The position numbers and the translations under genes are program-made. Positions 246 to 15,148 of a DNA stretch of 35,657 bases are shown here, one piece after another. Location of the stretch: contig JBCDHV010000001.1 of assembly GCA_038749615.1 (NCBI GenBank), positions 1 through 35,657 on the forward strand, given 5' to 3'. Position 1 is the first letter of the stretch. Each line of letters opens with the position of its first letter. Under the pieces are notes generated by a model. It had not been told where the DNA came from, ran no database searches, and was given only the letters and a program-made list of their open reading frames with translations. This DNA comes from Bacteroidota bacterium (GTDB lineage: Bacteria; Bacteroidota; Rhodothermia; Rhodothermales; DATKEJ01).

Positions 246-1550
246 CTAGGCCGGTAGACCAGCCCTCGGCGAAAAGAGGAAGTCCGAGATCGAGGCCGGA
301 TCGCTTGCAAGCGCCCGGGTCTCGGTTTCGCTCAGGTGTGGGCAGTGCCACGCGAGCACGGCCGCACGCTTGCCCACCGGGTCGGCCTGGAGCCGCCGGC
401 GAGCCTGTTTGACGTAGGCCGCCGTCTGGTTGATGTTCGAGTGCCCGAGCTGGTCGGCGATGTCGAAGGCGGAGAAGGCGAGGTCGGCGAGATCCGTCGC
501 GTAGCCGTCGCGCAACTGGTGAAAGCTCGTGTCCGTGAGGCCTGCGAGTTGCCGGCAGCGCGCGAAAGCATTGGTGAGGGTTGGGGCCGGCACGCGCGTT
601 CGGTTCTCGCGCATGAAGACCGGGGCCATCGGATCGTCAGCTGGCATCCGCTCCATCTCCGTGCGAAGCGCGAGGGCGGCACGCGGAGAGAGCAGGACAT
701 CGCGCTCGCGGGCGACTTTGGTCACAAACGACTCCGGACGCAGCTCGCCAGCGCGCACGTACGGGCTTGACTCTCGGCTCCAGTGGCGCACCTGCACGTA
801 GCCCGATGCGTGGCCGGCGAAGAAGACGCTCCCTCGGTTCAGAAACACCAGCTCGCTGCGGCGCAGACCAGTCGCACGAGCGACCTCGAAGGCCGCTTGG
901 AGGACAGGCCGGTCGAGACGCTCGTAGATGCGGCGGAAGTCGGCGAGCGAAACCGGTCGGTTCTTCTTCGACTGCACGCTCCGGCGCTCGAGCAAGCTGG
1001 AGCCGGTCAGGTAGTCCGCCTGAAACGCCTTGGCCGGGTTCGTGTCGCACCAGCCCTTGCGAACGGCGATCTCGAAGAGCTGCCGCACGCAGCGGCTGTA
1101 GGTCGCGATCGTGTGCGCGCTGCGAGGCGTTCCGAGCAGCCACTCGCGCACGTGTTGAGCGGTGACGTGGCGCACCGGCGTGTCAGCACCAGCGGGGAGA
1201 CGAGCGCACAGGCTCCGGAACGCGGTCTGCCGGGCTTTCAGGCTCGCCGGCCGCTGGCGCTGAAAATACCGATTCGTCTCCTCGTGCACCTGGGCCAGGG
1301 AGACGGACTTCTTGACGGGATTCCACGGATCGTAGTCGCCGCGGAGCCAGTCGAGCTTGAGTTTGCGGTACTTCTCGACGGCAAACTCGATGTCGTGCTG
1401 CGAGATGTCGCCGAGGTCGACTTCGCCCATGCGCCGGCGTACCCGTACCGGGTGGCGGTCTGGATCCTCGAACGTACCGTAAATCAGGTTGCCTTGCCGG
1501 CCGCGGTAGAGCATGCCGCGGGGCAGTTTGGGGCGTTTCGTCTTTCCCAT
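246..1550 (-). CDS. int: Tyrosine recombinase / phage integrase
   Basis: Lies in ORF 246..1604; I start it at the ATG of MGKTKRPKLP (1550). Catalytic-domain motifs are TGLRRSELVFL (Arg), HQLRDGYATDLA (HxxR) and LGHSNINQTAAYV (His...Tyr). Confidence 0.9.
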   Translation of the reverse strand: MGKTKRPKLPRGMLYRGRQGNLIYGTFEDPDRHPVRVRRRMGEVDLGDISQHDIEFAVEKYRKLKLDWLRGDYDPWNPVKKSVSLAQVHEETNRYFQRQRPASLKARQTAFRSLCARLPAGADTPVRHVTAQHVREWLLGTPRSAHTIATYSRCVRQLFEIAVRKGWCDTNPAKAFQADYLTGSSLLERRSVQSKKNRPVSLADFRRIYERLDRPVLQAAFEVARATGLRRSELVFLNRGSVFFAGHASGYVQVRHWSRESSPYVRAGELRPESFVTKVARERDVLLSPRAALALRTEMERMPADDPMAPVFMRENRTRVPAPTLTNAFARCRQLAGLTDTSFHQLRDGYATDLADLAFSAFDIADQLGHSNINQTAAYVKQARRRLQADPVGKRAAVLAWHCPHLSETETRALASDPASISDFLFSPRAGLPA

Positions 1551-1555
1551 AGGTA

Positions 1556-1593
1556 TGTGTGCGTTTGATGTCTGATGATAACAAACGCACACA
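1556..1593. promoter_or_regulatory. Perfect 12-bp inverted repeat (TGTGTGCGTTTG-N14-CAAACGCACACA) in the int / dprA-like divergent intergenic region
   Basis: Arms at 1556-1567 and 1582-1593 are exact reverse complements. The repeat sits 6 nt upstream of the int start codon on the minus strand. Confidence 0.45.
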
Positions 1594-1608
1594 AATGATT
1601 GCACAGGT

Positions 1609-2820
1609 GTGCCGGCTTCGTTTGGCCGGACGGTTACTCAGATGTATAATTCGGCAATGGTCCAACCCGTCACCACATTGAGCGCTTCAGCAGACAAAAA
1701 CGGACTGCAGATTGGCCTTTTCGACGATGCGGAAGGGCTTCGAGCAGGCTTGCTAGGCTTGTCACAGACCCCAGGGGTCGGCTTGCAGTCGCTCAAGAAG
1801 CTTTACCGCACTGGCTTTTTTCTCGGATTGCCATCCGCTCCAGTTGAGGATCTTGTTGAGCGGGCTGTAAAGGTTCTCTCTGGGGCGAGCTTGGAAGGTG
1901 TACGAGAAGCACTTGGCAACAGAGAGAAGGTCATGCAGCGAGGCCGCAAGGTGCTCGGTGAGCTTCGTGCTGCTGAAATTCATGTCACTTTTGAACACGA
2001 GAAGTCGTTTCCTCGCCGTCTTCGAGACCTAGCTGAGCCTCCGCTTTGGATTTTTTACAGAGGAAGCTTGAAAGCGATATGGTCCAGAACCGCAGTCGCG
2101 CTCATAGGCACGAGAAGCCCCTCCGATTTTGGGGCCCGGCTAGCTTTAAACTGTGGATTTCATCTAGCTACGCGTGGCCATGTGGTTCTCTCGGGTCTTG
2201 CCCGGGGCATTGATCAGGCAGCGCACGAAGGGTGTCTGGAGGCAGGCGGCATCACCGTTGCTGTTCTGGCACAGGGACTTGCTTCGGATCTGTCAAGTAC
2301 AGCCAAATCGCTTGCCAACGAGGCAGTTGCAAACGAAGGAGCAGTCGTCTCTGAGTATTTGCCTTTTGATCCGCCTAACCGGTCAGCTTTTCTGCGTCGC
2401 AACGAGATTATTGCCGCTCTCGCTCGCTTGGTTGTGCCCGTTGAGTATCCGGAAGTCCAGAGTGGGACCGGTGCTACCGTTCGGCGAGCAATGGCGATAA
2501 AGCGTCCGTTGGCCGGAATTTCGAGCAGTCGCTTCGAAGGGCCAGCATCTGAAGCGACTCAACGCAACTTGAGGAGCGCAGGCATTACAGTCTACGATCT
2601 CCATAACGGCGAGGCTGAGCGCTTCTGGACGCATGTAGCGAAGCTCGTGGATGCTCGCGAGGCAGCCGAGAACAGACGAACTTTGCTTGGCCGGCGTGCT
2701 GAGCATTTTGCCCGCCTGCTTGCAATCGAGGCTAAGTCGCGCTCCATGGATCCAGGCGAAATCGATTCGTTCTTGGATCTTCTTACGAAAGCAGTTCGGA
2801 GGAGCATTGCCGGTGATTAA
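1609..2820 (+). CDS. DprA/Smf-like (SLOG Rossmann) protein; ShosA-like
   Basis: Motifs match the DprA Rossmann core: LIGTRSPSDFGARLA...VVLSGLARGIDQAAHEG...GITVAVLAQGL...SEY...FLRRNEIIAAL. An N-terminal HhH/SAM-like LGLSQTPGVGLQSLKKL is also present. The start is uncertain (GTG 1609, ATG 1642 or ATG 1657). Confidence 0.8.
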   Translation: MPASFGRTVTQMYNSAMVQPVTTLSASADKNGLQIGLFDDAEGLRAGLLGLSQTPGVGLQSLKKLYRTGFFLGLPSAPVEDLVERAVKVLSGASLEGVREALGNREKVMQRGRKVLGELRAAEIHVTFEHEKSFPRRLRDLAEPPLWIFYRGSLKAIWSRTAVALIGTRSPSDFGARLALNCGFHLATRGHVVLSGLARGIDQAAHEGCLEAGGITVAVLAQGLASDLSSTAKSLANEAVANEGAVVSEYLPFDPPNRSAFLRRNEIIAALARLVVPVEYPEVQSGTGATVRRAMAIKRPLAGISSSRFEGPASEATQRNLRSAGITVYDLHNGEAERFWTHVAKLVDAREAAENRRTLLGRRAEHFARLLAIEAKSRSMDPGEIDSFLDLLTKAVRRSIAGD

Positions 2821-3952
2821 GCTACTCGTCACCGATGGAGACGGAACCCTATTCGCTCCGAGTGAAGCGGACTACCTGGGCGATTTTCGTGTATGGCTAA
2901 GGCAAGAAGGGATTGCGCTTGGGGTTGCTAGCAATGGACAGCGAGGAGTGATTCTCCGCCGGTTTGCCGACCACGGGATTAGTCCTCCAGACTACATCGT
3001 CACTCGGGCAGATGTGGGCAATAAAAAAAAGCCGAGCCCTGCTTTTGTTGATAAGCTGATGGAACAGGCAGGCGTAGAGCCAAGAGAGACTGCTTACATT
3101 GGAGATGACGAGAGAACGGATAACTATTTGGCTATCAATTCGCGAGTCATGCCACTGCTGGCAAGGTATTCGGAGGGCTACAGTGGCAAGTACGCATTTC
3201 CGATTAGCTCGCTTTATGGGTTGAAGCGTTTCTTAGAGGTCTTCGGCCGTCAGCCTGCTCCCTACTTTGGGTGGGTGTGCAAGAGTGACAACTATGACTT
3301 CCGCGCTGTAATCAGCCAGCACTCCCGCATAGGAAGCCAAATGCGAGCGGTTCTCAAGGAGCACCGCGACGTGCAAGTGGGTCCGGGAATGAGCCTGCGA
3401 CCCCTGCTGTTCTACTACACACTTTCGCAGTGCTACTTGAGTGGTGCACACGATGGGAAACGACTCATCGCCGTCTATCCTGGCAGTCAACCCAAGCGGC
3501 CCAACTCCACGCTGGCTGAGTTTGGTGAACTTTTCGACCTGACCTCGCAATCCAACTACCTTACAGATCTCCTAATCCGTGAGAAACCCGCCCCAGAACA
3601 GAAGAAGGCTGGAGTCCGGCGGTCGTTTGGTCCGCAGCTCGAGACCGTTCGCCTAAACGATGCGCACAAGAGGAGAATCAGTGGAAAGAGCGTGTTGGTA
3701 CTCGACGACTACACAACGTCTGGCGTGAGTCTGGCTGTCGCCCATGCACTTCTCAAGCAAGCAGGAGCAAGCAAAGTGATCGGCGTAGCCATCGGTAAAT
3801 TCCGAAACAAGCAGCGCGTCGTGAAGCTGCCGGCGAGCTACGACCCCTTCCGTGTCATGTCAGCTGGCACCAGGCTTGAAGAGGACGTACTCGATGGCGT
3901 GCAGCACGCCGAAGCTGATCAGCATTTCTACGACCGGGTCATTTCCGCGTGA
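2813..3952 (+). CDS. HAD-like phosphatase domain fused to a phosphoribosyltransferase (PRTase) domain; ShosT-like
   Basis: GTG 2813 is preceded by GGAGGAG and overlaps the upstream stop (GTGATTAA). HAD motifs are VTDGDGTL (DxDxT), GVASNG, KKPSP and YIGDDERTD. The C-terminal PRPP loop is SVLVLDDYTTSGVSL. Confidence 0.75.
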   Translation: MIKLLVTDGDGTLFAPSEADYLGDFRVWLRQEGIALGVASNGQRGVILRRFADHGISPPDYIVTRADVGNKKKPSPAFVDKLMEQAGVEPRETAYIGDDERTDNYLAINSRVMPLLARYSEGYSGKYAFPISSLYGLKRFLEVFGRQPAPYFGWVCKSDNYDFRAVISQHSRIGSQMRAVLKEHRDVQVGPGMSLRPLLFYYTLSQCYLSGAHDGKRLIAVYPGSQPKRPNSTLAEFGELFDLTSQSNYLTDLLIREKPAPEQKKAGVRRSFGPQLETVRLNDAHKRRISGKSVLVLDDYTTSGVSLAVAHALLKQAGASKVIGVAIGKFRNKQRVVKLPASYDPFRVMSAGTRLEEDVLDGVQHAEADQHFYDRVISA

Positions 3953-4015
3953 GATACTGAGACAAAAAAGCCTCTCTTGTCAGGATAGTGAAACCCCCAC
4001 CGTTATCTGGACAGA

Positions 4016-4459
4016 TCAATCCAAGAAGGGCGGTTGGTTCCAGTGGCGGCCCACTGCACCCTCACTCCATTTTGGTAGCTTTCTTCCCTGATAGATTGCC
4101 ACGAGATCGTTTCCACAGGTAGACGTATAAGATTTTCCTTTGTGATCTTCGTACGTAGACCCGATTCCTGTTGTGTTTACGTGGCCAAGCCACTTGAGCA
4201 AAAATACAGACCCTTTGGCCATTGGCGGGATTCGCACAGGATTAAACCAGGATCCGGAGGGGTTCTTCTGAGCCACTACAACGTTGAGTGCGGGACCGTT
4301 TCCTATGTTATGGATACGCCAACCGGTATCTCCGTCATATTCTATTGAGAGCACGGGTACTATCCGAGACCTGAACGAGCGAAGCGTCTGCCAAAATGAG
4401 AGAGCAAACGAAACAAGTGAGAGGATAAAAGCAGGAGCAATCAAGGTCTCGAAATCCAT
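4016..4459 (-). CDS. Small membrane-anchored protein (N-terminal TM helix plus beta-rich domain), unknown function
   Basis: 147-aa ORF in low-GC DNA. The N-terminal hydrophobic helix is LIAPAFILSLVSFALSFW. It is convergent with the PRTase gene. Confidence 0.55.
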   Translation of the reverse strand: MDFETLIAPAFILSLVSFALSFWQTLRSFRSRIVPVLSIEYDGDTGWRIHNIGNGPALNVVVAQKNPSGSWFNPVRIPPMAKGSVFLLKWLGHVNTTGIGSTYEDHKGKSYTSTCGNDLVAIYQGRKLPKWSEGAVGRHWNQPPFLD

Positions 4460-4517
4460 CTTTTTTGGACAGGTCGTGCTAGGTACAAGCGAGATCGCCC
4501 GCCGGCTTCGCCTTTAA

Positions 4518-4540
4518 CCGGCAGCGTCCGGGGCTGCCGG
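4518..4540 (-). terminator. GC-rich hairpin (8-bp stem CCGGCAGC/GCTGCCGG, 7-nt loop) downstream of the HD-GHKL gene
   Basis: The stem was read directly from the sequence. The flanking U-tract is weak on both strands, so a terminator function is tentative. Confidence 0.3.
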
Positions 4541-4764
4541 GTTTCGGCCAGCAAGCGTGCATCGTTCGCTAGCTCGCTGATGGGCTCAGCGTTGCCCTCG
4601 TGTCCGTGGAGCCGGCTCGTGACAGTCTCTGCTGAGGGGAGCGACGTGAAGTGGCATGTCTCGCTCCTCTGGTACCGGCGCTGTAGATGCCGGCGGGTCT
4701 CGGGCGTAATTCTGTTTGCCAGCTTGTGGCTAAAAAAGCAGCTATCCCAACGTTGGGTGGTGGT

Positions 4765-7389
4765 TCAGTTTTCGGAGTTTAATATCCTATTTAAGTCTAG
4801 AACACCGAATGCATACCATTTGTGCCGCGTACTTGCAGACACTTCATCCATGGGCCTCACACGCCAATCGATCTGATGCGACAAATCTTCGATGTGGACC
4901 GAGAGGACGCGAGCTGCCTCTTCAAGGAAAAAGTCGAACAAAAGGTTTTTGTTGGTTTTAGGCAGTTGCTTTGTATTCATGCCGTCAGGGGAATTTCCAA
5001 ACGATTCCACATCGTCATTTGAACTTTGAGTAGCCTTCCATTGATGTTCAATTATCAAGACGTTGTCCGGGATCGGGATGAACACTGGCGCTTGATTTGA
5101 GACGAAAAACGGGTGTACAAAAACTATCTCTTCGTGCTGCAGAAAATCTGAAATGTTGGATTTACATATGGCGCCAGAACGTGTAAGCGCGAATGCTAAA
5201 TCGCCTATGTCGCCTCCAAAGGCGCTAATTTTTTCTGCTACCTCGATCTGCGTGCGAATCGGAAGACGTAAAGCCTCAGCGAGGCGGGCTTGCTCGGTAG
5301 CCCATGTTGCATAAATGGTCATATCTCCCATTAGCGCAGCCTGATTTCTGGCGGCTACACTCGGCACACTCTTTAGCACGCCCTGAAACTGAAGCGAATC
5401 GGACGCTCTGAATCCCCCAGTGGTAAGCAAGCCCCTGTCAGCGGATCTGGAGCTCGCGTTGCCGTCCTCGTCCTCATCAAAGAATGTAGGAATAGCAATG
5501 CATGCTCTTCCTAAATTGTCATCCAAGATGCGCAGTCGTGCCCCGTCTCTATCACGCTCCTTTTGGATTGACCCGCCAGAGTCGATCCGGTCAAGCAGAG
5601 TCTGCCCCTCAATACTGAGCCAGTCGTTTGCTTTCACCGCAAGAGTCAATTCGCCCTCATCGGCGTAGAGGTCGACATCCAAAGTTGGGCAAAGCCATGC
5701 GCAACATTGTGCAAGCGTGAATGTGGAGTGTCGCGCACGCGCAACTAAGAGTCCCGAATTCGCCGGCGACAGGCCATCGCGAAACCACACCCTGACGACT
5801 GTACCGGCATCAAGCAGTTCAGGTGTGACGTTGCCGGTTTTCAGAATAGGCCGGGTCCCGAGACCACCGGTAAATTCCAGTGTGAGCGTCTCGCTGCTTG
5901 CGCGGTCCGGCCGGCGTGTGACAACCCGGACGTGGTCACCCCACATGAAGACGGAGAAGAAACCAATGCCAAACTGGCCGGTGGCCTCAAACCCCTTGCG
6001 CTCCAAGCCGGGCAGCTCCGCATGCATGAGCGACGATCCCCAGAACGAGGTGCTAAAATCCAAAAAGGGTCCCGTCAGCACGTCGACCGACATACCGATA
6101 CCTGTGTCCTTAACCTCAAGCCAGTGGCCGTCGTCGTCTTGGCCAGTGTGGACGACGATGTGCCCCCAGTCGTTTTCTCTGGATTCGAGCAGCCGCCGGG
6201 CACGCACGGCGTCGGCTGCGTTCTGAATCAGCTCACGGAGAGGGACCGTAGGGCTGTCTCCGTAGAGTTTCTCGCCCCCCAAGGCAGAGATGAGGGAAAC
6301 GACATCACTCACCTGCACGCGGGCGTCGACGGGCAGCCAGCCGTTTGTGCGGACGAGCTGCGCGAGGCTTTCGGGGGCGTCGGTGTAGGCGACGCTCCGA
6401 GCTGCTAGCCGAGGCCGGTCCGTGTCGGCAAGCAGCGTGTCGGTTCGGCGCAACTCTTGGTCGACCATGCGGAGCGTGTCCGCGCAGAGCCACCACGCCT
6501 CTGCCTGGGCTTCCTCGAAATCGCTGCTCGAGGTGTACTCGAGCCGGTCTCTTTCGAGCCTGGGCTGATTGAGTTTGGCCTGAAACGTCCAGTGATCCGC
6601 GCTGTAGCCTTCAGGCCGGCGGAGCGCGTGAAGGAAGGGATCTGCCCGCCGCTTGTCCAGGTGGCTGGCGTCGGCCGTGCGGAGCATACAGGCGAGCTTG
6701 ACGGGATCGATCGTCCACCTCCTATTGAATCCCCCAGGCGCTCCTATTCTCGAGGGGAAGCCCCTTGCGATCTGATCGATAGGCCACCAATGGCTGTGGG
6801 CGATCCGGCCGATCAGCGAGCCGTAGCTGCTCCGGAGGTTCGCATCCTCAATCAGGTGGAGGGTGCCGCCGGCCGGGTCTGGCCACGAGACGAGCGCGAG
6901 CCGCTCGGCCTGCTCAGCGTGCCGCATCCGCAGCACGTGCTCGGTTGCGCGCTGGGCGATCTCAGCCGGCGGATCCTTGATCTGCTCCTCGGTAGCCGGC
7001 CGGCCGTGTTCGCGCCGGAGCATGCCGGCCACCGTGTCGAGCCAGAGGTCCGAGCTCTTCAGCTCCTCAATGCCGGCCGGGTAGGCAGCCAATCCCAGGC
7101 CGAGGTCGTGGATCAGGAAGGCGCCGCCGAGCACGTACGCCTCAGCCGGGGTGATGGGGTAATCGTCGCCGGCGATCAGGTCTGCCATCTCCCAGAGCGC
7201 GTCGATGTGCGTGATATCGTGGACCGTGAAGTCGGGGAGGTCACGACCGATCTCGGCAGCCAGCGTGGCGGCTCGCTCTCTGAAGCGCTCGAAGCTGGTA
7301 CGCAGGCGAGTGCGGTTGCTCTCTTCAGGGTCGCCCGTCCGCTGGGCCAGCGTTCTGTGCCAGAGATTCGTGTTCGCGTACCGGGACAT
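4765..7389 (-). CDS. HD-domain plus GHKL (Hsp90/MORC-type) ATPase protein, 874 aa
   Basis: The N-terminal HD-type dyads are FTVHDITHIDALW and AFLIHDLGLG. The central Bergerat fold shows LRELIQNAADA (N box), EVKDTGIGMS (G1) and TGQFGIGFFSVF (G2). Confidence 0.85.
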   Translation of the reverse strand: MSRYANTNLWHRTLAQRTGDPEESNRTRLRTSFERFRERAATLAAEIGRDLPDFTVHDITHIDALWEMADLIAGDDYPITPAEAYVLGGAFLIHDLGLGLAAYPAGIEELKSSDLWLDTVAGMLRREHGRPATEEQIKDPPAEIAQRATEHVLRMRHAEQAERLALVSWPDPAGGTLHLIEDANLRSSYGSLIGRIAHSHWWPIDQIARGFPSRIGAPGGFNRRWTIDPVKLACMLRTADASHLDKRRADPFLHALRRPEGYSADHWTFQAKLNQPRLERDRLEYTSSSDFEEAQAEAWWLCADTLRMVDQELRRTDTLLADTDRPRLAARSVAYTDAPESLAQLVRTNGWLPVDARVQVSDVVSLISALGGEKLYGDSPTVPLRELIQNAADAVRARRLLESRENDWGHIVVHTGQDDDGHWLEVKDTGIGMSVDVLTGPFLDFSTSFWGSSLMHAELPGLERKGFEATGQFGIGFFSVFMWGDHVRVVTRRPDRASSETLTLEFTGGLGTRPILKTGNVTPELLDAGTVVRVWFRDGLSPANSGLLVARARHSTFTLAQCCAWLCPTLDVDLYADEGELTLAVKANDWLSIEGQTLLDRIDSGGSIQKERDRDGARLRILDDNLGRACIAIPTFFDEDEDGNASSRSADRGLLTTGGFRASDSLQFQGVLKSVPSVAARNQAALMGDMTIYATWATEQARLAEALRLPIRTQIEVAEKISAFGGDIGDLAFALTRSGAICKSNISDFLQHEEIVFVHPFFVSNQAPVFIPIPDNVLIIEHQWKATQSSNDDVESFGNSPDGMNTKQLPKTNKNLLFDFFLEEAARVLSVHIEDLSHQIDWRVRPMDEVSASTRHKWYAFGVLDLNRILNSEN

Positions 7390-7692
7390 CGGCTCTCGCT
7401 CTGCTAAGTTGGTGGGACGTGTTGCGGCCGGCCCGTTGGTGGTGTGGCTAGTCGGCTTGGTAGGGGAGGGACGTCCAGCGGCACCACCTCAGCTACTCCT
7501 CGTCCGGCGCCGGCATCTTGTATTTCGGCCTGAGACAGACAGAGCCGTGTGTTGGCTTGGGCGACTAGTCTGGTGGAGCCGAAAAGCTAAGGTGTCCGAA
7601 TGAGCCCGGGTTCCATCCAATGAGGCACAGCGTTAATCAGACAAAAGTAGACTTCGGATCGTAATCAATAACGCTACAAGTGAGGCAGTAGT

Positions 7693-9579
7693 CTAGAGCA
7701 TGGGGTTATCCAAGTCCTCCTCCGAGTAGTTCATTTCCTTGAGAAGATCTTCAATATTGGTTTCCATGCCAGAGAGGAGCCGGTCAAGAACACGGTCGTA
7801 ATCATCCTCCAGCTTACCGAGGCGCTGCCGCACGCGCGTGCGGCGCACCTCAATGGCCCGAAGTCGCTCATTGTACGATTTTATCTTACCGTCGTAGCTG
7901 CCCGAAGACTCTAGTTTTTCTAGTTTTGTAGCTTCAAGACTTGCAATCTCATCCAAAAGCGACTGGTGCTTTTTTATTAGATGAATGCTAATGTTCTCAC
8001 CTGGAGATAAAGTGATTATACCTTCAACCTCCTCAAGCTCAGATCGAAGACTTTTAGTCATAGCATCGATTTGGTCAATAGATCTTGAGAAAGCTTCAGA
8101 TTCGCTGATGATAGCGTCAAGTTGCAGCAGGGCGGAGTCATATGCGTCGTCCTCTTGAGCAATCCTGGTTCTGGTGTCGCCTATTGCTGCCTGGATTTTG
8201 TTCAATAGAGCATCAGTCTTAGAGTCGGCATGTGCTTCGTCTTCCTCTACTCTAAGACGGATCTCGGCTCTTTGCTTATCGAGCTTCTCCCGCTTCTCTT
8301 TTTCAGCAGCGTCGTTTTCTCTTTTCTCATCCCTCGCCCTTTGGCGGGCTCGTCGAGATCTTTCGGCTTCGTCTAAGAGCGATTTGTCTCTACGAGCTTG
8401 TGCCTTTTTGAGGTCGAACTCGTTAAGCCATTCTTCAAAATCATAGTCGCGTAAAGGCGATCTTGAGTAAGACCGGTTCTCTTCATATTCGATATACTCA
8501 TCGTAGGCGCCTTGTATGTACCTTTCCCACCTGCTCTGGAGATACCCGTTCAGGTATAGCCTAATTGCGTGTGGCTGCAGCAATTTTATCAGAATCGTTG
8601 AAAGGAACATCCCGTAAAGCAGCAGGATGGCTAGTCGCTCGGCCTTTTGATATGCATTATTTGAGCCCATGAGCTCGATCTGGATCTGTCGATTCGCAAA
8701 TGATCCAACTAGGGAGGGGACACCGTAGGTAGTCACCAGAGAGTCGTAAGGCATGCCTTTGATTCTCGCCGACTCTGAATTGAAGAGAGAATCAATGGCG
8801 CTCAGCTCAATCTCCTTGGCCTTGATGTTCTGTTCCATGGAGATGGCAACGACACTCCTTCCATAAGACCGAGATCCCCCGGTGCCATTAATTTCTGCAG
8901 TAAGACTGTCTCTGAGTGCATCGAGAGAGCTGGTGAGTTTAGCCTTGCGGTCAGCATTTCTAGACCGGAGAGTGTCAACGAGCACTCTCCTTTGCTCGCC
9001 ACGCTTCTCGGCCAAGGCAGCGTCTATATCCTCAGTGATCAGTATCTGAGCTAGGTATGGAGCAGTTATGAACGTGAAGCCAAGCAGGACGCCAATTCGA
9101 AGCGAAACTGCCAAGAACAGCTTTAAAGATTCACCAGACGCAAGACTATATATGCGGGCAAAAATGGAATCCAAGTGTTCTGGCTTGCCCTCCCTGTCTT
9201 CCTGGGCCAAATAAGACGGTTTCGAGAAATCGCTGGTTATGAAGGTGGAATCGATAAACCATATCATTCCAGCAACAACTAGCCCAACGGCTACACCAGA
9301 GATCCACCTGCCAGCCGTACTTTCAAAAGGCAAAATATCCTGAACAATGATCGTCCAGGTAAAGCCTTCTATGATCGCCATGGCAATGGCTAAAAACGCC
9401 ATAGCCCCTAGCCATGCTCCTGCTAGCGGTAGTAGATTCTTCCTTCCATGGGGACGCATCAGCAAGGTTCGCCTGAATCGCTCCCCTGTCGAAGGTTCGT
9501 CCCGAGTCAAATCCGGGTGCTGCGTTTCCTTAGCGCTACGGTGTTCCATAATTCCCCGCGAAGTATCAAATAATTCCAC
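7693..9579 (-). CDS. Multi-pass membrane protein with internal and long C-terminal charged coiled coils (DUF4407-like)
   Basis: Four hydrophobic helices are visible (LAGAWLGAMAFLAIAMAII, ISGVAVGLVVAGMIWFI, LFLAVSLRIGVLLGFTFI, LAILLLYGMFLSTILI). The motif EINGTGGSRSYGRS is present, followed by about 250 aa of E/K/R-rich heptad-like sequence. The start is GTG 9579 or ATG 9549. Confidence 0.75.
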   Translation of the reverse strand: MELFDTSRGIMEHRSAKETQHPDLTRDEPSTGERFRRTLLMRPHGRKNLLPLAGAWLGAMAFLAIAMAIIEGFTWTIIVQDILPFESTAGRWISGVAVGLVVAGMIWFIDSTFITSDFSKPSYLAQEDREGKPEHLDSIFARIYSLASGESLKLFLAVSLRIGVLLGFTFITAPYLAQILITEDIDAALAEKRGEQRRVLVDTLRSRNADRKAKLTSSLDALRDSLTAEINGTGGSRSYGRSVVAISMEQNIKAKEIELSAIDSLFNSESARIKGMPYDSLVTTYGVPSLVGSFANRQIQIELMGSNNAYQKAERLAILLLYGMFLSTILIKLLQPHAIRLYLNGYLQSRWERYIQGAYDEYIEYEENRSYSRSPLRDYDFEEWLNEFDLKKAQARRDKSLLDEAERSRRARQRARDEKRENDAAEKEKREKLDKQRAEIRLRVEEDEAHADSKTDALLNKIQAAIGDTRTRIAQEDDAYDSALLQLDAIISESEAFSRSIDQIDAMTKSLRSELEEVEGIITLSPGENISIHLIKKHQSLLDEIASLEATKLEKLESSGSYDGKIKSYNERLRAIEVRRTRVRQRLGKLEDDYDRVLDRLLSGMETNIEDLLKEMNYSEEDLDNPML

Positions 9580-9738
9580 TCGCGAAACATGTGGAAGATC
9601 CCGTTGCTTTCAAACGTGTGATCCAATAGAAGCGGTCTGCACTCGAGGTTCTTGCATCGCATATCCACCCGGCATTCAAACCAACCACAGAATAACACAT
9701 AAAGCCGAGGATGTCACGGCAGTGATCGCGCGATCGCG

Positions 9739-9787
9739 AGCAGCCAGTCGTAGAGCGCGCTACCCAGGCCGCCGGCGACTGGCTGCT
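9739..9787 (-). terminator. 12-bp GC-rich stem (AGCAGCCAGTCG / CGACTGGCTGCT) with 25-nt loop, about 30 nt downstream of the DUF1353 gene stop
   Basis: The inverted repeat was read directly. There is no U-tract. The 12-bp palindrome GATCGCGCGATC lies adjacent at about 9724-9735. Confidence 0.3.
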
Positions 9788-9815
9788 TGATCCTTCTACT
9801 GATCTATTTTCATGC

Positions 9816-10529
9816 TCAGTCGTAACTCAGTCCGCAGTGGCGTCTGTCTGCAGGTAAGCTGAACTGCCTAGTTCCTTTGCCTCGCAAGTGCTCTCGCAAG
9901 CGAAGCCAGTCTCCGTCATACGTCCAATTTGATAGCGGTACGACTTTGACATATCCCTTCTTTCTATCGTTCTGGTTCTCTCTCCACGCGTTTCCCCCCG
10001 CTGCTCTCAGCGCGGCGTAGACTGCCCATATCCGATCTGGTCTGACTTGAAGATCTTGCATTGCAGCTCGCATGACCTTGTCCGCAGTCTCACGGTCTTC
10101 ACATTCCTGGGTCCAATAGAGATAATCGTGGATAATAGCGGCACGCTTATGCTTGCCAGCAACAGATACGTACGACCTTACACGTGGTGGTACGCTTGTC
10201 AAGTCGGTAACAAACCCTGCTGGGACAACGATTTTCTCTCCTCTGGTACCAACTTCGTAGATCATATTCTGAGCAAGCATCCAGAACTTTCCGTCCCTAA
10301 AGTCTAACAGCGCCGCCCTTGTAGGTGGTTTTCGATATGGGTCGTTAAGGTCAATTAGGTACAAATCGTCGTCGAGAAAACTCGCGCTGTCAGCAAGTGA
10401 GGTTACATAAAGCCAGAACATTTCTTTTGAAGAACTTTCACGGGGATAACTAATTTCCCTGTAGGCACACCCTGATAGCCATAGGACACATGTAAAAGCT
10501 AGAGTTACAGTAAGCGTGTACTTTCTCAT
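9816..10529 (-). CDS. DUF1353-family lipoprotein
   Basis: The start is at MRKYTL, with a signal peptide and lipobox (VLWLSGC). The DUF1353 signature is GFVTDLTSVPP...AAIIHDYLYW. Confidence 0.8.
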   Translation of the reverse strand: MRKYTLTVTLAFTCVLWLSGCAYREISYPRESSSKEMFWLYVTSLADSASFLDDDLYLIDLNDPYRKPPTRAALLDFRDGKFWMLAQNMIYEVGTRGEKIVVPAGFVTDLTSVPPRVRSYVSVAGKHKRAAIIHDYLYWTQECEDRETADKVMRAAMQDLQVRPDRIWAVYAALRAAGGNAWRENQNDRKKGYVKVVPLSNWTYDGDWLRLREHLRGKGTRQFSLPADRRHCGLSYD

Positions 10530-10820
10530 GGCAAGAATGGTCGGCACGCAGCACAAAGAGTAGGAGGGGCAAGCCTAACAGGTTTCCTACTGGCATTCTA
10601 ACGACTGATGTTGAACTTAGTCAAAGGCGTTCGGGATTGATTAAAAAATATACAGCCGGCGCAATAGACCGGAAAACCCCGGCATCCGGCATTTCAGCAC
10701 TGGCCGGCTAGTCGAGGTAAGTCTCCGGCCCATCGAGTTCAATCAGGAGAGAGTCGATGGCGTCTAGTGGCGGATCGTCGGGACGCGTGGTGCCGGTGAG
10801 GTGCCGGCGGGTGAGGAAGG

Positions 10821-10865: not shown

Positions 10866-11918
10866 CTACGAGTGCGTCAAAACCCGCGTGAGGGCATCGG
10901 CCCTGTTGAGCAGCCGGTTGATTACTACTGGTGGGGATACGTAAGAAGAAGGAACGCCGTACACGTCTCGCCGGCAGGTTGAGCAGCGGACGTCTTCCTC
11001 ATGAAAGCTTGCTCCGCACGCACCGCACAGGCGGACCACGACCTCTTCTTTTGAAAACATGCCCACGGTGCGTTGTTCGTTCACCACGGTCACAGGGAAT
11101 TGCTGCTCGACCAGCTCGGCGACTCTGCGCATGGGATTGATGTCGCCGGCTCCGTAGCTGCGCTTGGCTGCACCCGCAGCGGTAAGCCCGTTCAACCGTA
11201 CCTCTTCGTCTTCGCTCATCAGAAGTGGCCGGATGCGCCCTGGATCGAACAGACGGCCTTGCTCGACGACGATGCGCCCGAGCTCACCTGCGGAAAGCAC
11301 CGGACGCGCTAGCCAACCATAGACCGCCTCCTTCGCCGCCTCTTCGGGAAGCGCAAGAACGTATTTGATGATGGGGCCCGGGTTATCCTTATCAAGTCGC
11401 CGCCTGCTCTGCGCCAGCTCAGCGTTGATTTGCGGCAAAGCTGCTGGCGACCGGTGTTTGGCTGCAAAGGCGAGGTCACGCCTAGAGAGCGAGGACGTGT
11501 TTGCTGCTATCTCGGCAAGACGCATTTGAACCCCGAGAGCGTCAGCGTCTATGCGACTCGGTCTGTTCGGCTGGTCAGCGGGCGTGTCTAGCGTTACTGC
11601 TGTACCAGAAGCGGTCACCATGAACATGCTTTTGCCGCCCCCTGAGACCTCGTCAAAATCGACACGCACACCCACAACTGCGTGGGCTCCGCGATCCAGA
11701 CCAGCGTCGGCAAGCTGGTCAAGGACTTCCTTGTTGATCGAGGCCAACTGCTTGTGGTACGACTGGGATCGGCCACCGAACACGTCGCTGAAGCTTGCCG
11801 CCATGTCAGCAAAAAGATTCGTGCCGGCAACGACGTAGGCCGAAACTACTCCGAGGTACCCGGTAATGCGTGCGCCTTCGACGTGTGGAGTTGTGGTGAC
11901 GATGATTGGGGAAGCCAT
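10866..11918 (-). CDS. YbjQ (UPF0145/DUF74) domain protein with helical middle region and C-terminal zinc ribbon
   Basis: The first ~105 aa align with E. coli YbjQ as I recall it (TTP.VEG..I..YLGVV...G.N.F.D......GGRS.SY.K.L...GA.AVVGV..D...V....MFMV.ASGTAV). The C-terminus carries CGACG...CSTCRR. It is the last gene of the minus-strand lysogeny operon. Confidence 0.85.
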   Translation of the reverse strand: MASPIIVTTTPHVEGARITGYLGVVSAYVVAGTNLFADMAASFSDVFGGRSQSYHKQLASINKEVLDQLADAGLDRGAHAVVGVRVDFDEVSGGGKSMFMVTASGTAVTLDTPADQPNRPSRIDADALGVQMRLAEIAANTSSLSRRDLAFAAKHRSPAALPQINAELAQSRRRLDKDNPGPIIKYVLALPEEAAKEAVYGWLARPVLSAGELGRIVVEQGRLFDPGRIRPLLMSEDEEVRLNGLTAAGAAKRSYGAGDINPMRRVAELVEQQFPVTVVNEQRTVGMFSKEEVVVRLCGACGASFHEEDVRCSTCRRDVYGVPSSYVSPPVVINRLLNRADALTRVLTHS

Positions 11919-11982: not shown

Positions 11983-12747
11983 TCAGCGGCTGGGGAAGAG
12001 TTGCTGCTGCACCGCGCCGGCCATGCTCGTAATCGCCTCCTTCACTTCGCGCATCAGCATTTGGGAAACTTGCCGGCGTGGCCACAAGACAGGGCCAACC
12101 ACACGAAAGTCCACCTTCCGTCCGGTCTCTTGCTGAATGAGTGTACCGTCGTTACCTGGGGTGAGTACTTCGTCACGGTAGCCGGTGGAGCGGTTGTCGC
12201 ATTTTAGCACGAGACTACCATCACTGAGACGCTGGACCCGCCTAAGAATGAGGCGTCCATTGACTTCGAGAACGTGGCGACCCGAGCCGGCAATGCGGTC
12301 GGAAGCTCTGTAGAAGACCACGTCACCTTCGGTTGCACTTGGCTCCATGCAGTCGCCAGTCACGGCCCAGATTCCAATCTGTCCACCAAGCTCTATCCCG
12401 AGCACGGTTTGCAGGACGTAGCGATGCAGAAAGATCTCTTCAGTCTGATCTGACCCTGTGAGCCGGCGGTCGCAGACAGTGATCGCTACGTACGCATCGC
12501 TCGGAATTGGCCGCCGAGCGGAAGAGACCACGCTTGCAACTTCGCCTTCAGCTAGCCACTCGAAAGACACTTCCAATACGTGGGCATACAGAGCAAGCGC
12601 TCGGTTTGGAACGGGGTACTTCCCGGATTCATGTCGAACCACGCTGCGTAGATGCATCCCAGTCTTGTCCGCTAATTCGGACTGCGTCAGTGATCGGCGC
12701 TTCCGAGCTTTTTTCAGGCGGACAGAAACAGGGGACTCAGAAGGCAT
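11983..12747 (-). CDS. CI/LexA-like HTH-XRE plus S24-fold protein with substituted catalytic dyad (Ser to Cys, Lys to Arg)
   Basis: The HTH is RRSLTQSELADKTGMHLRSVVRHESG. The S24 region reads GDCMEP instead of G(D/T)SMEP, and LILRRV instead of VKRL/VKRI. Confidence 0.85.
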   Translation of the reverse strand: MPSESPVSVRLKKARKRRSLTQSELADKTGMHLRSVVRHESGKYPVPNRALALYAHVLEVSFEWLAEGEVASVVSSARRPIPSDAYVAITVCDRRLTGSDQTEEIFLHRYVLQTVLGIELGGQIGIWAVTGDCMEPSATEGDVVFYRASDRIAGSGRHVLEVNGRLILRRVQRLSDGSLVLKCDNRSTGYRDEVLTPGNDGTLIQQETGRKVDFRVVGPVLWPRRQVSQMLMREVKEAITSMAGAVQQQLFPSR

Positions 12748-12766
12748 GAGTGCGAAAGCGTCAGCG

Positions 12767-12803
12767 CTACCGGTTTACGAGCCGGCTCATCTGCTGGGTG
12801 ATG
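12767..12803. repeat. Direct-repeat copy B: genuine 3-prime end of the CI repressor gene (...TITQQMSRLVNR-stop)
   Basis: This is the partner of 10821-10857, 1946 bp away. Confidence 0.8.
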
Positions 12804-13504
12804 GTTGAGAGGATCGCCTGAGGCGTGTCCGGCGGAAAGACGACCCGGCCGCGAACGTTGACGCGCAACCGCAGGTCGTTGTCGTCGTCGCTGTACATGT
12901 CTTCACCCAGCGGTCGCAGCGTGCGGGTGACGTGAGCCGGATTGTCGCTCACCACCTTGATCGCGCCGCCTCCGAGCTTCTCGATGCGCTTGACCTCTTC
13001 GCCGTCGTCGTCGTCGAAGTAGAGCACGTAGCGGCCGGCGGCTGTGATGCCGTGGACCACCTCGACAAGAATGGGAGTGCCGTCGGGCAGCCACGGCTCC
13101 ATCGAGGTGCCACGCACCCTCGTCCAGTACGCCTCATCGGAATCGAGCGTGCGGCCACTCGTCCATGCCTTCAGGACGTCCACCGGGGTAATGATGTATT
13201 CGCCCGTGTCCTCTTGCTCTTGGCCCGGGCCGGCTCCGACGCCGCCGGCAAAATATCGATGCCGGACAACGCTGGAGGTACCTTCAGTCAGGCTTTCGGA
13301 GTGGCCGTTTGAGAGAGTTTGTTCGCCTTCTCCAATGGAGTGAAGCAGCCAGGCCCTTTTGTTTTTAGGAATTCTTCCGCCCAGATAATTCTTGAGCGTG
13401 GAGACTGAAATCTTGAGAGAGACGGCTGTCTCCTCTTGGTTTAAGCCCTTCTCTAGCATCCACGATCGAAGTAGAGCAGAGATTTTATCAGGTGAAATAG
13501 TCAA
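12767..13504 (-). CDS. CI-type prophage repressor (HTH plus intact S24 autopeptidase domain)
   Basis: The HTH is LNQEETAVSLKISVSTLKNYL. The S24 Ser motif is VRGTSMEPW and the Lys motif is EEVKRIEKL. The apparent start is TTG at 13504. It is divergent from an RHH gene. Confidence 0.85.
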   Translation of the reverse strand: MTISPDKISALLRSWMLEKGLNQEETAVSLKISVSTLKNYLGGRIPKNKRAWLLHSIGEGEQTLSNGHSESLTEGTSSVVRHRYFAGGVGAGPGQEQEDTGEYIITPVDVLKAWTSGRTLDSDEAYWTRVRGTSMEPWLPDGTPILVEVVHGITAAGRYVLYFDDDDGEEVKRIEKLGGGAIKVVSDNPAHVTRTLRPLGEDMYSDDDNDLRLRVNVRGRVVFPPDTPQAILSTITQQMSRLVNR

Positions 13505-13593
13505 TTTTAGACATTTTGATATTGCGTAGGGGCCTAAATTTGGCTATTCTACGGGTGCAAGAGCTATCTGTTACACCCTAAAGATATCAGGCC
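13505..13593. promoter_or_regulatory. Divergent immunity-switch intergenic region with candidate operator half-sites
   Basis: It lies between the CI gene (minus) and the RHH gene (plus). An imperfect inverted pair TGATAT-N3/4-TAGG occurs at 13517-13530 and 13577-13589 (reverse complement). GGGTG-N16-CACCC occurs at about 13553-13578. Confidence 0.35.
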
Positions 13594-13773
13594 ATGCCTA
13601 CGGATCAAATCATAGTTCGCGTTTCGAGGACGGAGCGCGAACGGATTGAGCGGGCCGCAGAGATCGACAGGCGGTCTCGCAATCAGTTCTTGAGAGTCCA
13701 CGGCCTCGAAAAAGCCGAGCGTGTGTTGCGCGAAGCCGGCGAACTCGAACGCGAGGAGGCCGGCGATGCCTAG
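13594..13773 (+). CDS. Ribbon-helix-helix (CopG/Arc-like) protein, 59 aa; positional Cro analog
   Basis: It is not in the ORF track because it is under 60 aa. My translation is MPTDQIIVRVSRTERERIERAAEIDRRSRNQFLRVHGLEKAERVLREAGELEREEAGDA, which has a beta-strand/helix/helix pattern. Its stop overlaps the next start (ATGCCTAG). Confidence 0.6.
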   Translation: MPTDQIIVRVSRTERERIERAAEIDRRSRNQFLRVHGLEKAERVLREAGELEREEAGDA

Positions 13774-14083
13774 GAAAGCGACGAGCTACAAGCGGGCCGA
13801 AGAGCTGATGGCCGGCGATGTCTTACAAGTTGTGCCCTTCTGTTTCGCGACAGTGACACGGGTCATCCTTGACGAGACGCACGCCGAGGTGTCGCTAGAG
13901 ATTGAGACGACGCTACCGGCAGATGGCATCGAGATCACGATGCCAGTCGAGCGCGGACAGATCGTCACGATCTACGGCGAGGACTCAACACCATTGCCCA
14001 ACAGGGCAAACGGGCCGGTCCCCGGCCCTAAATCGCCCGCAATGGCGACTCACGACGGGCGGGGAGTTCGCCCGTCTACCTAA
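13766..14083 (+). CDS. Hypothetical early protein (member of the small AGD-motif paralog set)
   Basis: I use an internal ATG of ORF 13721..14083 that is coupled to the RHH stop. The motif is EELMAGDVLQVV. Confidence 0.55.
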   Translation: MPRKATSYKRAEELMAGDVLQVVPFCFATVTRVILDETHAEVSLEIETTLPADGIEITMPVERGQIVTIYGEDSTPLPNRANGPVPGPKSPAMATHDGRGVRPST

Positions 14084-14167
14084 AACGAACGCCAGCACCC
14101 TGAGCCTGAGAAACTGGGGTGCCGGCGAGCCGGGCCGAGATCCGGCCCTCAAACCGAGAGGTCTAGA

Positions 14168-14407
14168 ATGAGCATACGAAGACTAGCACGAATGAGCAAA
14201 CGATGGCGCAAGGGCGGGCTCCGGCCCACCCCAGAGCGCACGGGCGACGGCCGGCGACGAATCAGGGTAGGGGACTACGTGAGTTTCCAGCAATGGATCG
14301 GAGGTCGAGGCTACGTCTGGACCTACCGCGTCGGTACGCTGCTGATGACCGAAGAAGAGTTCAACCGCCGGTATGTCGTGGCCGGAAGTGTGCGGGGGGC
14401 GGCATGA
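14168..14407 (+). CDS. Hypothetical early protein, 79 aa
   Basis: The ORF has an ATGA overlap with the next gene. The motif is IRVGDYVSF. Confidence 0.55.
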   Translation: MSIRRLARMSKRWRKGGLRPTPERTGDGRRRIRVGDYVSFQQWIGGRGYVWTYRVGTLLMTEEEFNRRYVVAGSVRGAA

Positions 14408-14628
14408 TGATCCAAGGACCTGAAATCAGAGCCGGCCAGCTCGTGCGCCTGCCGTCGTGGAGCTATCCGCTTCGTGTCACGGGCGTCGAGCACGAGGGCT
14501 CGATGACATGGCTCGTCGGCGAGTTCGTCGGCGAAGGAGCCCCTGAGGGCCGGCGTGAGCGCGTGATTCTGCCGGACATGTACGTCGAACTAGCGCCGGA
14601 TGCCGGCGCTGGGGAGGTGCCGGCATGA
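14404..14628 (+). CDS. Hypothetical early protein, 74 aa
   Basis: ATGA overlaps occur at both ends. The motif is IRAGQLVRL and the protein ends in EVPA at the conserved junction 17-mer. Confidence 0.55.
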   Translation: MMIQGPEIRAGQLVRLPSWSYPLRVTGVEHEGSMTWLVGEFVGEGAPEGRRERVILPDMYVELAPDAGAGEVPA

Positions 14629-14912
14629 GTCTAAAAACTGAGCACATCAACGAACGGGCGATCCGGCTTGGCGACGGGGCGCTTTATGTCCCCTCGGAAG
14701 ATGCGGAGTTCGTGTCGATCGATATCCATAGTGATGTCGCTGTGCACACGGAAGAGCCCGAATTCACGGCTGCGACAGGCCTATGGTGGTCGTCTGACGA
14801 GATCGAAGTTGGATACGTGGACCCTGAGGTGGCCGCTGCTGAACTCTACCGCATTGTCCGGTATCAGTCGGGCCGGCTGCACCGCCTCGAACGAGTGGAG
14901 GTGCCGGCATGA
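14625..14912 (+). CDS. Hypothetical early protein, 95 aa
   Basis: It starts and ends in the conserved GGAGGTGCCGGCATGAG junction. Confidence 0.6.
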   Translation: MSLKTEHINERAIRLGDGALYVPSEDAEFVSIDIHSDVAVHTEEPEFTAATGLWWSSDEIEVGYVDPEVAAAELYRIVRYQSGRLHRLERVEVPA

Positions 14913-15148
14913 GTCAGTACCGCAACACGAAGCCGGCTCGCGAGCTGGCCGCCGGCGATCTGGTCTTCGTCCACGCCTGTGATTTGATCTCCGGCGTCAT
15001 CATGGAGATCGTCACGGTGGATAGCGACCCGCCGGCACCGAGCATCGCCAGCGTGGCGAGCGCGCGGGCGTTCTTGGTCAACATCGACGCAGACGCTGAG
15101 GTCGAACTCGTCGGCACCGTACGCGAAACGGAGGTGACGGATGGCTAA
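14909..15148 (+). CDS. Hypothetical early protein, 79 aa
   Basis: It starts at the junction 17-mer. The motif is ELAAGDLVFV. Confidence 0.6.
   Translation: MSQYRNTKPARELAAGDLVFVHACDLISGVIMEIVTVDSDPPAPSIASVASARAFLVNIDADAEVELVGTVRETEVTDG

Follow-up and report, generated by a model that had tools for sequence, protein, structure and literature searches.

The stretch of DNA analysed here, referred to as the window, is the entire 35,657-bp contig of a Bacteroidota metagenome-assembled genome, and the gene under study occupies positions 4765–7389 of its (−) strand, where the list of open reading frames (ORFs) contains a single uninterrupted ORF with an ATG start and a product of 874 amino acids (aa). 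We consider this gene to encode a self-contained conflict enzyme of three modules, namely an N-terminal HD-CE domain, an ATPase of the Hsp90 type and a hypervariable C-terminal half, which is carried as prophage cargo and is most likely anti-phage; the probability of this reading is placed at about 0.5. The original prediction, which was made from the sequence alone, had described an 874-aa ORF with HD dyads and Bergerat-fold motifs, and this description is borne out by the profile matches and invariant residues reported below. The motifs that it quoted for the HD part (VHDITH, residues 56–61; LIHDLGL, residues 92–98) and for the ATPase part (ELIQNAADA, residues 386–394; DTGIGM, residues 428–433; GQFGIGFFSVF, residues 471–481) are each at least 95% conserved among 117 homologues. 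The deposited annotation (AAGI08_00020) gives a product of only 640 aa, starting at the internal Met235, and a start at this position removes most of the HD domain. However, as homologues of about 880 aa align with the 874-aa ORF from residue 1, the longer ORF is the real gene and the HD domain is truncated in the public record. A model of the full-length protein, which was built with AlphaFold2 (AF2) on 74 homologues, has a predicted local distance difference test score (pLDDT) of 87.4 and a predicted template modelling score (pTM) of 0.84, and the pLDDT drops below 50 in just two segments, consisting of residues 361–371 and 784–813.

The N-terminal module matched the Pfam HD-CE profile (PF24391) from the first to the last of its 263 positions, scoring 185.2 bits where the cutoff is 27 (E=2.5e-54). 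In the alignment of 74 sequences, residues H57, D58, H61, H94, D95, H157, H200, D240, and D245 are invariant, and relatives of 800–1,040 aa that share 22–28% identity retain nearly all of the catalytic residues of both the HD and ATPase domains. The conservation of the HD residues across homologues was one of the points on which the original prediction had offered itself for refutation, and both catalytic centres are found to be conserved family-wide. Two-metal HD phosphodiesterases and nucleases typically show an extended H...HD...H...H...D pattern; the set of ligands in this protein suggests a two-metal centre, and HD-CE is taken to be the effector, a predicted metal-dependent phosphodiesterase. 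The model of the HD domain alone is confident (pLDDT 92), and in Foldseek searches it gave weak matches only, the best of them with E=0.037, a template modelling (TM) score of about 0.3 and a root mean square deviation of about 15 Å. Nearly all of these matches are to enzymes of the HD superfamily, mainly class-I cyclic-nucleotide phosphodiesterases, together with Ddi2 and BT4208. At the level of sequence, no relative of the HD domain was detected in the PDB, even at E≤10. The HD module is a deeply divergent HD clade and, because its fold has no significant solved relative, its substrate is a guess. The origin of the name 'HD-CE', or of PF24391, was not found in the literature, including the conflict-system papers of the Aravind laboratory.

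The second module possesses the N-box (ExxxNxxD), G1 (DxGxG), and G2 (GxxGxG) motifs that place it among the GHKL ATPases, and within these motifs residues E386, N390, and D393 (N-box), D428, G430, and G432 (G1) and G471, G474, and G476 (G2) are invariant in the 74-sequence alignment. The Pfam HATPase_c_3 profile scored barely above its threshold (25.4 bits against a cutoff of 25), the NCBIfam models for HSP90/HtpG gave partial matches at 1e-15 to 1e-19, and a search of the PDB with the family profile identified the N-domains of HtpG, Grp94, and TRAP1 at E=8e-17. Based upon these matches, the ATPase is assigned to the Hsp90 clade. An orthologue of HtpG is ruled out, as the protein scored 67.5 against 455 bits with NF010683 and 57 against 371 bits with NF003555, and by sequence the similarity is limited to the N-domain. 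The original prediction had referred to an 'Hsp90/MORC-type' ATPase; of these two designations, the first is upheld by both sequence and fold, but the second is not. The MORC and paraMORC proteins are marked by a GhXhhpXXRhl motif in their S5-fold domain (Iyer et al., 2008), for which a regular-expression search of the protein gave no match, and its best relatives in both sequence and fold are Hsp90 proteins, not MutL or MORC.

The C-terminal region of about 350 aa had been described as uncharacterised, and this part of the description has to be revised. In the Foldseek comparison, the full-length AF2 model aligned with structures comprising the N-terminal and middle domains of Hsp90, TRAP1, and HtpG over 450–495 columns (E=2.5e-10), and because the alignment spans both of these domains, most of this region is, as modelled, Hsp90-middle-domain-like and not structurally blank. 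In this region, R628 and R681 are invariant and are candidates for the catalytic basic residue of the middle domain. The median pairwise identity among homologues is 54% for residues 1–350 (HD) and 61% for residues 351–530 (ATPase), and it is 34% for residues 531–690, 28% for residues 691–783 and 26% for residues 784–874. The query protein is itself unusual in this regard: its final 90 residues show 11% identity to the homologues versus 26% among the homologues themselves, and its C-terminal half is 1.7 standard deviations more divergent than is predicted by the trend of the family. Pairs of homologues that are 90–100% identical over residues 1–500 fall to as low as 45% over residues 531–874. 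For example, P0058 and P0064 are 93% identical over the first of these segments and 45% over the second, and the comparisons of P0058 with P0064, P0060, P0048, and P0077 give values of 90–94% and 45–48%, respectively. Such discordant pairs look like candidates for natural swaps of a C-terminal module. Within the query gene, the GC content at third codon positions (GC3) is 0.72–0.90 for codons 1–500 and 0.44–0.60 thereafter, and this break coincides with the change from the conserved to the variable part of the protein. The low-GC half resembles the surrounding cargo genes (about 0.49–0.52), and the high-GC half resembles the phage core (0.62–0.66); a peptide-seeded scan of metagenomes identified no donor or closer relative of the low-GC C-terminal half. 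A conserved enzymatic core joined to a fast-evolving and exchangeable recognition half corresponds to the usual layout of immune sensors and of restriction specificity subunits, and the variable half is here taken to be a specificity or sensor module.

The family to which this protein belongs is large. A word-indexed search identified homologues about 880 aa in length, more than 2,251 in number and with 40–54% identity, from many bacterial phyla and from archaea. An exhaustive hidden Markov model search with the HD module alone recovered 2,182 representative clusters, of which 983 reached E≤1e-30. In all 150 of the best of these 2,182 clusters the HD domain is N-terminal; most of them are about 880 aa in length, and the small number that are shorter probably represent fragments. 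Since every one of these 150 best matches to the HD profile carries an N-terminal HD domain, the fusion of HD and Hsp90-like modules is old and effectively obligate. A few members are split or truncated, which points to occasional inactivation: in one locus (L011) a frameshift divides the gene into two ORFs (1197–1667 and 1670–4042), in another (L020) the HD part (9148–10164) is separated by about 2.7 kb from the rest (12926–14623), which suggests an insertion, and a third (L021, 9971–10954) is listed among such members.

The gene is truly stand-alone, as had been originally supposed, and no neighbouring gene family recurs beside its homologues in 18 close and seven distant loci. About 10 of the 15 annotated contexts of the close family, the window included, are of a mobile or defence type, although this sample is small and lacks a background control. 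These contexts include a site with three flanking transposases; a position directly after an integrase, in an element bearing genes for ArdC and a polyvalent protein; an island with NERD-UvrD, DUF1016 nucleases, a Schlafen-like ATPase, and AbiEi/AbiEii; and sites with an integrase, IS110, group II introns, and SIR2 together with a DEAD helicase, with HNH, an AAA_13 ATPase, and Fic, and with an integrase, an AAA_15/21 ATPase, and PLD. In Zymomonas, the homologue is located at a plasmid site adjoining a TIR protein, while in a further locus an EAD8-TIR-FtsK/NACHT protein is found nearby, and a mixed site in Planctomycetaceae, with a phage capsid-like gene and a DUF4011 helicase, was counted only loosely. 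Additionally, of two distant relatives, one lies beside an MmeI-type restriction-modification (RM) enzyme and the other follows two serine recombinases. The survey of homologue neighbourhoods that had been proposed as a check gave a divided result, with about two-thirds of the annotated contexts mobile or defence-type and about one-third ordinary chromosomal, and the association of the family with mobile and defence regions is suggestive, not proven.

The ordinary chromosomal sites are the observation from which a different explanation would start, in which the protein works as an enzyme in cellular stress or signalling, i.e., as a chaperone paralogous to Hsp90 whose HD domain hydrolyses a nucleotide signal (a cyclic nucleotide or alarmone), and which became prophage cargo by chance. 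This explanation, which supposes horizontal spread of the gene, could draw upon the several homologues in such neighbourhoods, upon the best, though weak, fold matches of the HD domain to cyclic-nucleotide phosphodiesterases, and upon the public labels of the protein, which are merely 'ATP-binding protein' or 'HD domain-containing protein'. It could also draw upon Nitrosospira lacus (L066), in which a canonical htpG gene (15667–17589, + strand) is located 3 kb downstream of the HD-Hsp90-like gene; this proximity was seen in no other locus and is probably a coincidence. However, the family shows no conserved synteny whatever, its members repeatedly adjoin integrases, transposases, recombinases, and defence genes, they have been captured independently by unrelated phages (see below), and a housekeeping enzyme would not usually have a C-terminal half that is hypervariable and recombines. 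We therefore regard a role in cellular stress or signalling as unlikely.

The distribution of the family among mobile elements bears upon a further alternative. Members are rare on plasmids, full-length members are present on only seven of 2.9 million IMG/VR contigs, and the vast majority of the family is chromosomal. The IMG/VR carriers include two bona fide phage lineages that are unrelated to the prophage in the window, and at least three unrelated phage lineages, this prophage included, have captured the family independently. In one group of related phages (L076, L077, L078, and L080; GC about 0.41), the member is opposite in strand to long flanking runs of phage genes and adjoins an amidoligase-like gene; extra ORFs directly downstream of it are present in some and absent in others, and since they come and go in this manner a variable moron hotspot is suggested. 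In another IMG/VR contig (L081), a different HATPase_c_3 protein of 658 aa (4799–6775, + strand) is encoded 3 kb upstream of the family member, and overlapping ORFs of 181 and 1,202 aa (12631–16786, + strand) directly follow the latter, making this the sole operon-like locus.

Carriage by the prophage in the window, and by two or more further phage lineages, would also be expected of a protein for phage counter-defence or for competition between elements, whose HD domain destroys immune second messengers (cyclic oligonucleotides) or which excludes superinfecting phages. The leaning of the HD fold matches toward cyclic-nucleotide phosphodiesterases accords with this, and superinfection exclusion functions are common in prophage cargo. 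However, the members are overwhelmingly chromosomal, with the seven IMG/VR contigs noted above and none in 50,697 isolate phage genomes, and the known anti-defence phosphodiesterases are small and do not resemble a protein of 874 aa that includes an ATPase and a sensor-like half. In a viral structure library, the sole match to the HD domain was a 117-aa fragment of the same family, and because nothing other than this fragment was obtained no link to known anti-defence phosphodiesterases was found. Moreover, superinfection exclusion by a prophage in practice equals defence. In our view a counter-defence role is very improbable, and both it and the housekeeping explanation are less likely than the anti-phage reading.

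The original prediction had put the gene forward as a single-gene defence effector. Its location as cargo beside the ShosTA toxin-antitoxin defence system, which lies immediately to its left (1609–3952, + strand) and has been confirmed as anti-phage in the literature, and the mobile and defence contexts of its homologues are in accord with this proposal, as are its lack of partner genes, the independent capture of the family by unrelated phages, its hypervariable half, and the precedents discussed below, and it is from these that we infer defence. A number of observations weigh against an anti-phage role. The HD fold is without a significant solved relative; the catalytic-loop motif of Hsp90 (NLSRE) is not recognisable by sequence in the query; PADLOC v2 gave no real match to the protein and has no model for it; five of the 15 contexts are ordinary chromosomal sites, e.g., near the nuo operon, an RND efflux system, and alaS; and the family is absent from the isolate phage genomes.

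If the protein acts in defence, its modules may be coupled in the following manner. In the resting state, the HD site would be kept inactive. A ligand derived from infection, either a phage protein bound as a 'client' or nucleic acid, would bind to the variable half, and ATP-driven closure of the N-domains and their dimerisation would ensue, as in Hsp90 and other GHKL clamps. This closure would be relayed through the short linker, thereby freeing the activity of the HD domain, which would hydrolyse nucleic acid or an essential nucleotide and halt phage replication, with abortive infection as a possible route. The trigger could be of either kind. A protein client is favoured by the affinity of the ATPase to the Hsp90 clade, and in its most specific form such a mechanism would entail that an Hsp90-type clamp has been repurposed for immune pattern recognition, with the exchangeable half binding phage proteins as its clients and closure activating the HD domain; this client-sensing mechanism is put forward only tentatively and is, taken by itself, rather improbable. 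Nucleic acid as the trigger is favoured by a mostly basic middle region, by a weak match to BbrUII and by the one RM neighbour.

The same three observations could be accounted for by a restriction-like nuclease acting on DNA or RNA, in which the GHKL and middle domains form a clamp on nucleic acid like that of the MORC, MutL, GyrB, and paraMORC enzymes, a Cas3-like HD domain cuts foreign DNA, and the variable half provides the specificity. Such an enzyme would still serve in defence, but it would sense nucleic acid directly (by its sequence or modification) and not a protein client. A basic middle region is present in 67% of the homologues (median isoelectric point 8.9), and the argument that an acidic protein should not be a DNA binder was dropped for this reason; in the query itself, however, the middle and C-terminal regions are acidic (isoelectric points of 4.7–5.1). 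The match to BbrUII is to the GHKL-containing BbrUII/HgiDII restriction family of NCBIfam and is weak (E=0.028), and the RM neighbour is the MmeI-type enzyme that adjoins a distant relative. Further, GHKL-nuclease fusions are known as restriction or defence enzymes, and the hypervariable half resembles the target-recognition domains of RM enzymes. On the other hand, the sequence and fold matches of the ATPase are all to the Hsp90 clade, in which the known members are protein binders, and not to MutL, MORC, or GyrB; the S5 motif of MORC is absent; no methyltransferase partner is conserved; and the fold matches of the HD domain lean weakly to phosphodiesterases and not to Cas3. On balance, a restriction-like clamp of this kind seems doubtful.

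The surroundings of the gene in the window are those of a prophage, with genes for an integrase, two repressors of the HTH-S24 type (helix-turn-helix, HTH), a replication initiator, TerL, a portal protein, and a major head protein. The cargo segment is bounded by the tyrosine integrase and the two repressor genes, and the replication initiator, terminase, portal, and major head genes are located farther to its right. The claim that the gene is prophage cargo with its own flanking gaps is confirmed, and these gaps and the other features of the segment are summarized in Table 1. The ORFs for ShosA and ShosT overlap as listed by 170 nucleotides (nt), and the true start of ShosT is probably near 2816 (VIKLLVTDGDG). 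The 628-aa neighbour gave no match in PADLOC and never recurs beside the target's homologues, and it is possibly a further gene for cargo or exclusion. As neither it nor the 147-aa neighbour recurs next to homologues, both were dropped as components of a system. The ORFs at 4016–4459, 9816–10556, and 10866–11918 are likewise without a match in PADLOC.

Table 1. Coordinates of the modules of the HD-Hsp90-like gene and of the features surrounding it in the window
Feature	Positions	Strand	Basis or remark
Tyrosine integrase	246–1604		Left boundary of cargo segment
ShosA, DprA/SLOG-like	1609–2820	+	PADLOC 1e-59
ShosT, fusion of HAD and phosphoribosyltransferase (PRTase)	2651–3952	+	PADLOC 1.2e-28
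147-aa protein	4016–4459	−	No matches
Downstream intergenic region	4460–4764	−	305 nt
Complete gene, 874-aa HD and Hsp90-like ATPase	4765–7389	−	ATG at 7389, TGA at 4767–4765
Variable middle and C-terminal region, residues 531–874	4768–5799	−	Hsp90-middle-domain-like by fold
Query-specific low-confidence insertion, residues 784–813	4951–5040	−	pLDDT <50
Bergerat-fold (GHKL) ATP-binding domain, Hsp90 type, residues 372–530	5800–6276	−	Pfam, NCBIfam, PDB profile
Intragenic compositional break, about codon 500	5860–5920 (approximate)	−	Codon-window GC3 and sliding GC profiles
Flexible linker, HD to ATPase, residues 361–371	6277–6309	−	pLDDT <50
HD-CE phosphohydrolase domain, residues 51–315	6445–7239	−	Pfam PF24391, metal-ligand pattern
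Upstream intergenic region, presumed own promoter	7390–7692	−	303 nt
628-aa protein, N-terminal transmembrane segments and very long charged coiled coil	7693–9579	−	DUF4407 weak, E=0.0095
DUF1353 protein, lipoprotein-like N-terminus	9816–10556	−
350-aa YbjQ-domain fusion	10866–11918	−
Two tandem HTH and peptidase S24 (CI/LexA-type) repressor genes	11983–13504	−	Lysogeny switch

In the upstream gap, one TAnnTTTG element is present at 7642–7649, and because this motif is not enriched in the window as a whole (six were found versus 4.7 expected) it provides a weak hint only. Another such element is located just past the S24 repressor genes (13535–13542, + strand). A scan for sigma-70 promoters found nothing in 7390–7692, and the sigma-70 model is uninformative for a genome from the Bacteroidota. 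The downstream gap contains the palindrome CCCAACGTTGGG (4746–4757) followed by a T-run (4732–4737), and a terminator scan flagged the same hairpin on the + strand (4741–4761). The palindrome and T-run possibly constitute a weak terminator, although the gap of 8 nt before the T-run is not canonical.

Were the family defensive, it would add to the known immune repertoire a single-gene system that is widespread across bacteria and archaea, and under the client-sensing mechanism it would represent a new class of single-protein immunity, with approximately 1,000–2,000 sequence clusters, that evolves by swapping of a C-terminal specificity module. It would also provide the first instance of an ATPase of the Hsp90 clade, and not of the MORC or MutL type, gating an immune effector, in which client recognition of the chaperone style meets immunity. 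As HD-CE is without a solved or characterised relative, the identity of its substrate would define a new clade of HD enzymes, and the combination of conserved N-terminal and swappable C-terminal halves offers a natural system for studying the exchange of specificity modules.

The original prediction had stated that no characterised defence system built in this manner was known, and in PADLOC v2 and in the literature searched this proves to be the case, with no paper found describing the family or a defence role for an HD and Hsp90-like protein; the papers on DefensePredictor and on modularity networks mention HATPases of the histidine-kinase type only. The architecture is, however, not new to databases, as it is already catalogued in the form of a family defined by Pfam, which comprises more than 2,000 sequence clusters. 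Among known proteins, the Hsp90 chaperones (HtpG, TRAP1, and Grp94) share with the query the motifs of the Bergerat N-domain and the fold of the N-terminal and middle domains, but the query differs from them in having a 350-aa HD domain fused at its N-terminus, in lacking a recognisable NLSRE loop, in its hypervariable middle and C-terminal region, and in being encoded by a patchily distributed, mobile gene without synteny. The two-metal HD enzymes (class-I cyclic-nucleotide phosphodiesterases, HD-GYP, and the HD domain of Cas3) resemble HD-CE in the H...HD...H...H...D pattern and in the large, all-alpha character of its model, although HD-CE has neither a significant fold match nor a sequence-level PDB relative among them. 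Tiamat (TmtA), which is a single-gene system in both PADLOC and DefenseFinder, is similarly a large stand-alone protein found in defence hotspots, and presumably, in keeping with the alignment of its G2 box with that of the query, also a GHKL-type ATPase. However, its profile shows no similarity to HD-CE, and membership of the query in this system was rejected, as the match (E=0.014, 11.5 bits) covers only 24 residues (468–491, the G2 box) against a model of 1,302 positions. Sacsin likewise contains an Hsp90-like ATPase module in its repeat region and, at the C-terminus, an HEPN domain in one polypeptide (PMC3710099), which is comparable to the query in joining an Hsp90-like ATPase to a hydrolase that targets nucleic acid, and the G2 box of the query matches sacsin models at scores below threshold (30.6 versus 50 bits and 17.3 versus 32.8 bits); it differs in being a giant eukaryotic protein with HEPN in place of HD.

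The closest validated analogue is VcSduA (Shedu type I-D), a single protein in which a GHKL ATPase is fused to a nuclease and both activities are required for defence (PMC12137116). The query is not itself a member of Shedu, as DUF4263 was not detected in it by Pfam at E≤1 and PADLOC gave no Shedu match. In both proteins, one polypeptide combines a GHKL ATPase, a clamp-like middle domain, and an effector that cleaves phosphodiester bonds, which in the query is a prediction. In VcSduA, for which phage defence has been shown, the effector is a C-terminal DUF4263 nuclease of the PD-(D/E)xK type and the ATPase is of the paraMORC3 type, whereas in the query the HD domain is N-terminal, so that the order of the domains is reversed, and the ATPase belongs to the Hsp90 clade. 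Gu et al. have remarked upon an Hsp90-like middle domain, for which they propose a role in sensing, and for variants of Shedu they have proposed that Hsp90-like N-terminal domains sense misfolded proteins.

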